Assembly (NCBI GenBank): GCA_024679065.1
Contig: JAGIQG010000001.1
Location: 87,482,001-87,546,000, forward strand
Source of the DNA: Sphyrna mokarran
Lineage: Eukaryota
Reading direction: 5' to 3'
DNA: 64,000 nucleotides
This document shows positions 34,001 to 37,000 of the stretch, one piece after another. The first letter of the stretch is position 1. The number at the start of each line of letters is the position of its first letter. The notes beneath the pieces were generated by a model. It was not told the origin of the DNA, ran no database searches, and worked only from the letters and a program-made list of their open reading frames with translations. Position numbers and translations under genes: made by a program.

Positions 34001-37000
34001 CTTGCTCCAGTACATTTCCCTGGGCATTAGGTGTCTCTAGTACCTTGACCAAATGAGAATTTGTATAATAATTCTGGCCAGAGTGTCAAATTTTTGTTCC
34101 TATAGGCATATGGTGACTTGTCCCAGTCCATCTGCCCCATACTATAAGGCTAATAGAAACAGTACTCTTAATTTCTTCCTTTTGCATAAACCAGAGACTA
34201 ATATTGTAATTGTTGCTAGCTTAACATCAGCCTTGTATCTTCATGTTTGTGTGTATAGGTATACTCCATTAACAGAGTTTCCATTAGCCTTCATGATCCT
34301 GAAACCTGATTCCAGACCCAAAAAAAACCTAAATAAGAACAATGTTTGGCAGCATCTATGGGGAGAGAAATGGTTAATGTATCAGGTTGATTCAGTGTTT
34401 AGTGTTTTGCTCCAACTGTAACTTCAACTTGGAATACTACAGTGAAGATTTTCCTAAACTTCCCCAAATTTGGAGCGTCATTGATGTCATAGCTAAAATG
34501 TTTTTCAAAATAAAAAAAATCATCCATTTTAAATCCTGATGAGCAAATAGTTTGAAGTAAGTCATTTCAACAGTATTGGGCTGAATGTCTAAAGCATGTC
34601 CTGACTTTTTTCTGTTTTTCAAACCTAGGGTTTCCGTTACAAGATGAGATCAGTGTATGCTCATTTCCCCATTAACGTGGTTGTTCAGGAAACAGGATCT
34701 CTGGTAGAAATCCGTAACTTCCTGGGAGAAAAATATATTCGTAGAGTTCGTATGAAGCCAGGTGAGTGAAGCAAGCATTAATTTCTGCGAACATTTTTAT
34801 GGAGAAAGGTAACCTTTGTAACCTCTCCCTGTTCCTTTCTTTTTGAATCAGGTGTTTCATGTATAGTTTCCCAGGCACAGAAGGATGAGCTTGTCCTTGA
34901 GGGAAACGACATTGAACTTGTGTCAAATTCTGGTTAGTATTCTACAGTCAAGTTGGACTGCCAAACCATTGAAAAACTTGGAATAGAACTGGAAGTATAT
35001 TGGTGACTGACTCCTTGACCCTCTTTTTATAAACTAACTAGCAAGAGTGAAAAGTCATAACTTTTCATGGATGCAGGTGATGTCGCTGTGAACATTTGTA
35101 TAGGGAAAAGGAATACTTGAAGTAAAAGCTTATTAATTATATTTTGCCTCTATTTCATAAATTGTTTCTGTGCTATCTCTATGGCCTGCCCCTTCATGAT
35201 CTCAGCCCTACTTTTTTCATCATGTCAGTTCAAATGTTTTTTAAAACTCAACTTGGTTAACTTATCTTTTTTAAAATCACCTATTGAACCATAATTTTTA
35301 TCCAATTTCTACAGTCTTAAAAAATCTTGCCACAATTACCTTGCTTGACTAAGGTGGTTGGCAGCACATGAGTTCTAAAATGATTCTTATCAGTGCATTG
35401 TTCAATGTCCTCCTCTGTCTGCTAACATTTATAGCAATGTGGCTGATTCTTAACTGACCTGCAGTGGCTCAGCAAGGAGCTCTGTTCCAGCATAAAATGC
35501 TGACACTATGGCTATGATGCCTCCAATCCATGAAAGAATATTTTAAAACTGAGAACTCGAGGCTTTGGGAGCTCTCTTCACTGATAGTTCTTCTGCTTTA
35601 TATTTTTCCTTTTCTATTCTATTTTGTAATTGAGCATAGCTCCCTTGAGTTATGCTGACTGCTGTGCTTTTCCATCTATTTCCCCAAAAAGTCTCATTTT
35701 AATTTTCCTCAATGTGTTTAAATTTCAATTTGCTTCCTCAAATGGTAGTTCTATTGACGTATTGCAATTCTTGCAGCTCTAGAAGCGAGTGGAAAAATTG
35801 TTACTTGATGTATTAATAACTTCTATTCCTACCTTTCAGGTAACTTGTAGACATGGAACCAATGGGTATAAGTATGGTGCTTCCCCTTTATGCAGTTGAA
35901 GGCAAAATTTGTGAAGACTGCTAATGCAGCAAATTGTTTCATCAGTGAAATGTCCTGGGTTTTGACTGCCTGTAAAATTAGTTGTCTCCTTTATCATGAT
36001 TTGAGGTGAAGCTCAGTGATCAGATCAGTTGCTCTATCTTCTGATCTAATCCAGAGGCTAGCCTTTAGCTGCTTCAGGAATTCATTCATGTCTTCAGTAA
36101 CTTTGATTAGAATCAATTTTCTTTCTCAAATTTTTCAATTTTCTTTTAGTACACAAATCTTCAGATTAATAATTAAGATTGGATGATTCTCTGAGGAAAT
36201 ACTGAAGAACTTCAGCACTTGAGTGTTTAATGCAAATTTGATACATCCTCAAGGATAGTAATGATGTATAATCTGCATTCCTCAAAGAAGTATCTGATAT
36301 CCTAGTTCTCCTCTATTCTTTTCCCAGCTCTTTTCCTAGCTGAGTTTACCAGCTCATTTGAATAGTCTTGCACCTGATGTAGTTTCTTTACCATACCATA
36401 ACCTTTTTAAAACTTGCTTTGGTTTCTCTATCCTTTATTAGAAAGTGTTTCCTACTTTGCATACTTAGTCTATCATGGCACATTTATGTTGATAGATATG
36501 GCAGTGATGTACATTGCTCACTGGCTTCTGTTTTGTTGTTTTGCTTTCTCAATCCATCACCAAGCCTTATAGATGATGCTGGAAGGTGAAATCTTGATGT
36601 GGTGATTCAAAACTTAAACCAATACAGTATTGCTCACCCCCTCTCTTTCTTTAATGCTAGTTTTCTGGTTATCCTGTTGTCGAAATTGTGAAATCTTCAA
36701 CTGATTTTAATTGGCTTAACTTAATTTTTAAAGTTGCTTATTTTGGCTAAACTCTTAAGTTGTCATTGACTACCTAATGTTTCTAATTGGCAACTTAAGA
36801 GCTTCTTGCAATTGCAGTATGATTTGTGCTGTCTTTAGTTTCCCTTTTCAGCTCCTGTTTGCATGATGCATCTTTTGGGTTAATTTTCCTGCATGGGTTA
36901 TTTATTTTCTAGCTGCCCTGATTCAACAGGCAACAACAGTCAAAAACAAGGATATCCGAAAATTCTTGGATGGTATTTACGTCTCTGAGAAGGGTGCAGT

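Follow-up and report, generated by a model that had tools for sequence, protein, structure and literature searches.

KRAS has two homologous last coding exons, 4A and 4B, which give rise to two protein tails, with 4B becoming untranslated once 4A is included. The gene is listed as a C-terminal event in a catalogue of human tandem duplicated exons (PMC8373072), and in cartilaginous fish exon 4A is placed between exon 3 and exon 4B (PMC9882654). Splicing rarely yields several proteins from a ribosomal protein gene (PMC8047918). No RPL or RPS gene appears in the supplementary data of the human catalogue (PMC8373072), and Drosophila RpS11 is among the fly genes in table S4 of a tandem duplicated exon study (PMC9741552). 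The ribosomal protein gene RPS24 (eS24) is spliced at its 3' end in a tissue-dependent manner, one isoform accounting for about 90% of its transcripts in muscle but 20-30% in brain (PMC11162997). RPL3L, encoded by a paralog of RPL3, is a muscle-biased ribosomal protein variant (PMC12811116).

Exons can also be skipped through an RBFOX site placed upstream of them. F1gamma exon 9 is skipped in muscle via an upstream GCAUG (PMC2018636), and a (U)GCAUG element at -34 of calcitonin exon 4 blocks SF1 at the branch point (PMC2777236). Mammalian Fox-1 is confined to brain, muscle and heart; Fox-2 occurs in many cell types, and its mRNA is high in ovary and embryo (PMC2777236).

The locus described here lies in a window of 64,000 nucleotides of Sphyrna mokarran DNA. 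Its gene, which from the translation we take to be RPL9 (uL6), has the layout of a C-terminal tandem duplicated exon of the KRAS type: two tandem homologs, A and B, of the same phase, only one of which is coding in a given mRNA and both of which are under purifying selection, with two proteins predicted. Unlike KRAS, RPL9 is a core ribosomal protein gene; KRAS 4A has been proposed to derive from NRAS. RPS24 uses microexons of 3-22 nt that change a few residues, while in RPL9 the exchange concerns an entire duplicated exon of 34-35 codons. RPL3L has a gene of its own, whereas RPL9 makes both forms itself, the muscle-favoured one apparently being A and not the variant B. Like F1gamma exon 9 and calcitonin exon 4, exon A has (U)GCAUG close upstream of its acceptor and can be skipped, but those exons are skipped in muscle and heart or in neurons, whereas exon A is included in a muscle-rich run.

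In titles and abstract openings of a literature that mostly excludes subscription journals, queries on RPL9 with RBFOX, splicing, duplicated exons, zebrafish or shark returned no description of the event, and those on the uL6 C-terminus gave no match. Passages of PMC7671327 and of the main text of PMC9741552 contain nothing on it either. An earlier description, or a database annotation of both isoforms, is possible.

RPL9 and its duplicated last exon

RPL9 is presumably flanked by LIAS and KLB, both named by us from their open frames, and the order LIAS, RPL9, beta-Klotho presumably matches that of the human genes. The LIAS-like exons (window 3764-25400, minus strand) stand head to head with RPL9 and the beta-Klotho-like exons (window 46607-56935, minus strand) tail to tail. 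The features of RPL9 are collected in Table 1.

Table 1. Features of the RPL9 locus, in window positions
Feature	Position	Strand	Remarks
Non-coding exon 1	29755-29785 (5' end approximate)	+	pyrimidine-rich (TOP-like) start; donor GT at 29786
Coding exons 2-6	30994-34932	+	AG/GT ends, open frame; exon 4-5 and exon 5-6 joints in RNA contigs
Exon 2	30994-31040	+	
Exon 3	31133-31248	+	
Exon 4	33836-33931	+	
Exon 5	34629-34761	+	
Exon 6	34852-34932	+	
Minor AG/GT acceptor, intron 6	35840-35851	+	exon 6 joined to 35840, depth 85, run X7
Possible decoy acceptor (pyrimidine tract and AG)	36839-36851	+	61 nt 5' of the A acceptor; better-looking tract than that of A
TGCATG motif 1	36860-36865	+	-53 to -48 from the A acceptor; letters unchanged in X1
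TGCATG motif 2	36890-36895	+	-23 to -18; directly 5' of the weak pyrimidine tract
Exon A (cassette)	36913-37035	+	last 34 codons, stop TAG 37017-37019, 16 nt UTR, donor GTTAGC
Conserved start of A-B intron	37036-37121	+	holds GCATG at +62
38-nt inverted repeat	37151-37188 with 37737-37774	+	predicted pairing across the A-B intron
Exon B (duplicate last exon)	37810-37960 (3' end approximate)	+	35 codons, stop TAA 37917-37919, AATAAA 37938

Exons 2 to 6 end in phase 1 and the frame is completed by either A or B, giving a predicted uL6 of 192 or 193 residues according to the end used; tilapia RPL9 has been described with 192 residues and eight exons, the number found here (PMC7072992). Translation stops in A where this exon is included, leaving B as 3' UTR, and B codes for the tail where A is skipped. 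In one retrocopy (L002), exon 2 is preceded by a spliced-on stretch of intron 1 (window 29789-29995), which represents an alternative leader exon lacking the pyrimidine-rich start. An Rfam scan of the window gave no match.

The two copies are 897 nt apart and 85% identical over 73 nt. Their first 27 codons differ by 13 synonymous and 2 non-synonymous changes, and the predicted uL6-A and uL6-B are distinguished by the change of Asn169 to Lys and by a tail of 8 versus 9 residues. Compared with the window, exon B differs at 0/115 positions in run X2 and at 1/123 in X5, and exon A at 1/124 in X7, against 5/84 for exon 6 in X2 and about 5-7% for the flanking introns. Both copies are thus tightly constrained, A and B alike being under purifying selection.

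RNA evidence comes from four coded runs (X1, X2, X5 and X7) of four organisms, out of 18 that cover part of the stretch. That they are RNA is a guess, but their joints are of the GT..AG type and exceed the intron contigs in depth by far. Because such depths reflect expression poorly, all depths and shares are rough, and since contigs show presence only, unlisted joints (exon 6 to B in X1, exon 6 to A in X2, A to B in X5) carry no weight. In X1, depths of 7362 for exon 6 to A and 6125 for A to B stand against 7476 for exon 5 to exon 6, which amounts to 98% inclusion of A and about 2% skipping. X2 joins exon 6 to B at 2124 and A to B at 459 (about 82% skipping), and the junction contigs of X5 have exon 6 with B at 2673 versus exon 6 with A at 131 (about 95% skipping). 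The letters of exon 6 precede both A and B in X7, where A is joined to B at 543, so that both forms are present; a depth for its exon 6 to B joint obtained by subtraction (1,160-1,880) was dropped, as an equally large remainder goes unexplained when the calculation is applied to the control X2. Between samples the skipped share of A spans about 2% to about 95%.

Exon A is therefore supported by joints on both of its sides and by four retrocopies, and exon B by its direct joint to exon 6 in X2 and by the exon 6 letters ahead of it in X5 and X7. A is a cassette exon with its own stop, mRNAs of the forms exon 6-A-B and exon 6-B both exist, and the skipping of A with B as the coding end, as proposed in an earlier note on this DNA, is real. 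It is likely that two versions of uL6 occur in the ribosomes of this animal. Strict mutual exclusion of A and B in the RNA is ruled out by the A to B joints and the tandem retrocopies.

A stop codon more than 50 nt before the last junction marks an mRNA for decay. Decay-coupled splicing of the RPL3 and RPL12 type was rejected for A and B, the stop of A lying 16 nt before the A-B junction and that of B in the last exon. Only the minor form spliced to 35840, in which a stop follows three codons on, would qualify for nonsense-mediated decay; this site in intron 6 (window 35820-35860) could belong to an mRNA bound for decay or to an intermediate of recursive splicing. The introns flanking A (34933-37809) have contig depths of 41-227 in the covering runs as opposed to about 3-10 for intron 4, and splicing on both sides of A is possibly slow or detained.

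Genome searches with A and B in the 2.77-Gb assembly led to six retrocopy loci that were examined, a count which leaves out two RPL9-like matches (C1326, and C668 at 28.0 Mb). Four of the six read exon 6-A-B, one of them with a 1.3-kb insertion between A and B; another has about 8 A-like bases ahead of B, the last is uninformative, and none of those examined reads exon 6-B. The A-B intron (window 37036-37671) is itself present as a copy at two other places (L005, L025), with 92-93% identity and within a duplicated segment that is 97% identical. These copies begin exactly at the donor GT and end about 100-140 nt short of the acceptor, which looks like a reverse-transcribed excised intron. Together, the exon 6-A-B retrocopies and the intron copy fit A to B splicing in germ cells or early embryos.

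Sequence elements around exon A

The earlier note had reported two TGCATG motifs within 55 nt of the acceptor of A, together with a TGCAT at 36867-36871, and none ahead of B. All three sequences are found on the plus strand at the positions given (Table 1), and the 150 nt upstream of B are free of TGCATG. The likely branch point, a TTAAT near 36880-36884 identified by visual inspection, lies between the two TGCATG motifs, the second of which abuts the pyrimidine tract. The acceptor at 36913 has a tract of 13/20 pyrimidines, the lowest among the eight RPL9 acceptors scored. Both UGCAUG motifs fall between the AG of the possible decoy and the real AG of A; no joint using the decoy occurs in the RNA contigs of the four runs. 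A further GCATG, absent from the earlier note, is found 62 nt downstream of the A donor (37097-37101).

Over the whole window TGCATG shows no enrichment, with 39 matches compared to 51.9 expected. In dinucleotide shuffles of the 60, 100 and 150 nt upstream of A, the probability of at least two matches was 0.0011, 0.0062 and 0.0091, respectively, and the window-wide rate gives P = 1.6e-4 to 1e-3 for a pair near A. Of 21 acceptors of RPL9, TPM1 and PKM, that of A alone has TGCATG within 60 nt. As some complex hexamer is repeated in 318 of 1066 tiles of 60 nt, the significance of the pair rests on TGCATG having been named beforehand; given this, the pair is unlikely to have arisen by chance. The X1 contig covering 34903-36941 differs from the window in 0 letters, which leaves both motifs intact in this run, and in the intron contig of X7 all 23 gap letters lie 5' of 36719, the final 194 nt ahead of A being free of them.

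Enrichment of PTB, MBNL, QKI, CELF or ESRP motifs upstream of A was not found; PTB-type 4-mers before A number six, compared to one to eight at other exons. Two GGG triplets are candidate sites for hnRNP H/F. A special local RNA fold around A was rejected (z = 0.19). Over longer distances, the best duplex in the A-B intron, to which the 38-nt inverted repeat corresponds, has a predicted energy of -36.4 kcal/mol that was reached in 0/60 shuffles. The first 86 nt of the same intron contain 0/22 of the shared differences from two old genomic copies (P about 0.035).

Exon A inclusion and a tropomyosin marker

As the runs carry no tissue label, the same four were compared on exons 7-8 of a tropomyosin locus. 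This locus, probably TPM1, has exons 6a/6b and 9a/9c/9d and shares its contig with an M1/M2-type pyruvate kinase gene. The pyruvate kinase gene (C916) has a duplicated M1/M2-like exon pair at L019:2503-2669 and 3085-3251. In mammals, TPM1 exon 9d is the smooth and non-muscle end and 9c is found mainly in brain (PMC8419188).

Depth over exons 7-8 is about 15,400 in X1, twice the RPL9 depth of that run, 108 in X2 and 212 in X7. X1 is therefore muscle-rich, a statement that covers striated, smooth and mixed muscle, as these are not told apart by TPM1 depth. Its TPM1 contig starts 8 nt before exon 7 and ends 2 nt past exon 8; such ends fit a lost 6a path and a 9a/9c branch, and hence striated muscle, which is a weak hint as error branches can do likewise. 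The longest contig of X1 has 40,597 nt. From exon 8, X2 continues only into 9d and X7 into 9c at 183/212, while X5 has no TPM1 contig, which proves nothing on its tissue. As each organism is represented by a single run, effects of species and of tissue are confounded throughout.

The muscle-rich X1 thus keeps A despite intact motifs, the non-striated and non-neural X2 mostly skips it, and the neural-marked X7 has both forms. The earlier note had suggested that RBFOX repression makes B the muscle and neural isoform, and had proposed comparing muscle with other tissues as a check. In this small test on four runs from four organisms the polarity is the reverse, with about 98% inclusion in the muscle-rich run and about 82% skipping in the one with only 9d. 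Maximal skipping in muscle, heart and neurons, which characterizes the class of RBFOX-repressed exons, is not what these four species-confounded runs show for A. What stands of the RBFOX reading is a motif pair in a known repressive position and the presence of four RBFOX-family loci, with Fox-1_C matches on four contigs and open frames (L012-L016); its muscle and neural direction is not supported. Mammals have three RBFOX genes, one fewer than here.

A model in which RBFOX1/3 acts on the UGCAUG pair to repress A in muscle, heart and neurons, making B the isoform of these tissues, is consequently improbable. In its favour, the pair is non-random and flanks the likely branch point, a classic place for repression, the exon 6 to B form does occur in the neural-marked X7, and X1 might be a smooth-muscle sample or a mixture low in RBFOX1. 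These points are opposed by the near-complete inclusion of A in X1, whose motifs are unchanged, and by the extent of skipping in X2 although its TPM1 is low and ends only in 9d.

The same confounding permits a trait of lineage, in which the species of the window includes A nearly everywhere and its relatives (organisms B, C and D) mostly skip it, with tissue playing a minor part. X1, the sole run in which A dominates, is also the sole letter-for-letter match to the window, the exon 6 to B form is seen in all three relatives, and X2 and X7 have most of their differences from the window in common. Against such a split, exon B is identical between window and X2 next to introns that have diverged, and hence is still constrained in the lineage of the window, which keeps B intact though its one run mainly uses A. 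The relatives, for their part, keep A almost unchanged and splice it to B, and the old retrocopies include A. We regard a lineage trait as unlikely.

Finally, the choice could depend on the state of growth, on the stage of development or on some regulator besides RBFOX, be it PTB bound to the decoy tract, hnRNP H/F bound to the two GGG runs or the long-range duplex within the A-B intron, with the UGCAUG pair being incidental. The tissue pattern predicted from RBFOX is absent in the marker test, the decoy tract, the GGG triplets and the 38-nt intronic duplex are all present, and a repeated hexamer occurs in 30% of the 60-nt tiles. PTBP1 is low in neurons and germ cells, which also counts in this direction. 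The same is true of its low level in adult heart (PMC8419188). This reading has to treat as coincidence two exact UGCAUG motifs at the one regulated acceptor (P about 0.001-0.009, with 0/20 among the other acceptors), and it is unlikely.

A proposed cell-type model and its possible meaning for the ribosome

The reading we prefer, with a probability of roughly one half, is that the choice between A and B is set by cell type, A being favoured in muscle and the germ line and skipped in many other cells. RBFOX possibly modulates A, although not as a muscle or neural off-switch, and this detail is held less firmly than the reading as a whole. All assignments of factors to exon A are inferred. Exon A would be weakly defined at its ends by a pyrimidine tract broken by purines, a decoy AG 61 nt upstream and the GTTAGC donor. 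Repression through a broadly expressed RBFOX2-like protein may be added by the two UGCAUG sites, which stand on either side of the likely branch point. RBFOX proteins usually activate from downstream of the donor of an exon, and muscle and germ cells might override the repression by way of the following intron, whose conserved first 86 nt hold the GCAUG at +62.

Besides the confounding of species with tissue, the rough depths and the lack of PTB-type enrichment before A, further points weigh against the cell-type reading in this form. RBFOX in muscle is normally high and represses exons with upstream sites, which makes the proposed override ad hoc, and the high Fox-2 mRNA in ovary and embryo is awkward next to retrocopies that include A.

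Carried further, and tentatively, the cell-type reading would place uL6-A ribosomes in muscle and the germ line, while many other tissues would mainly have uL6-B, with Lys169 and the other tail. The switch would then consist of a cluster of elements with RBFOX sites acting opposite to the textbook pattern. Mammalian RPL9 ends in a non-coding last exon, which under this doubtful extension would be the decayed remnant of B.

A duplicated-exon switch is notable in a core ribosomal protein gene. uL6 lies next to helix 97 of the rRNA, close to the sarcin-ricin loop, and stop-codon readthrough is changed by a variant of the human protein (PMC6954397). The switch in the uL6 tail is real, old and strongly varying, and the evidence points in the direction opposite to an RBFOX-driven use of B in muscle and neurons. 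It also calls for caution, as the tissues in which a switch goes one way or the other cannot be read from a UGCAUG pair upstream of the exon. A change in the skipped form from about 2% to about 95% between samples would be a clean case of natural ribosome heterogeneity arising from one gene, and because only few residues separate the two uL6 forms, their functional effect is directly testable.
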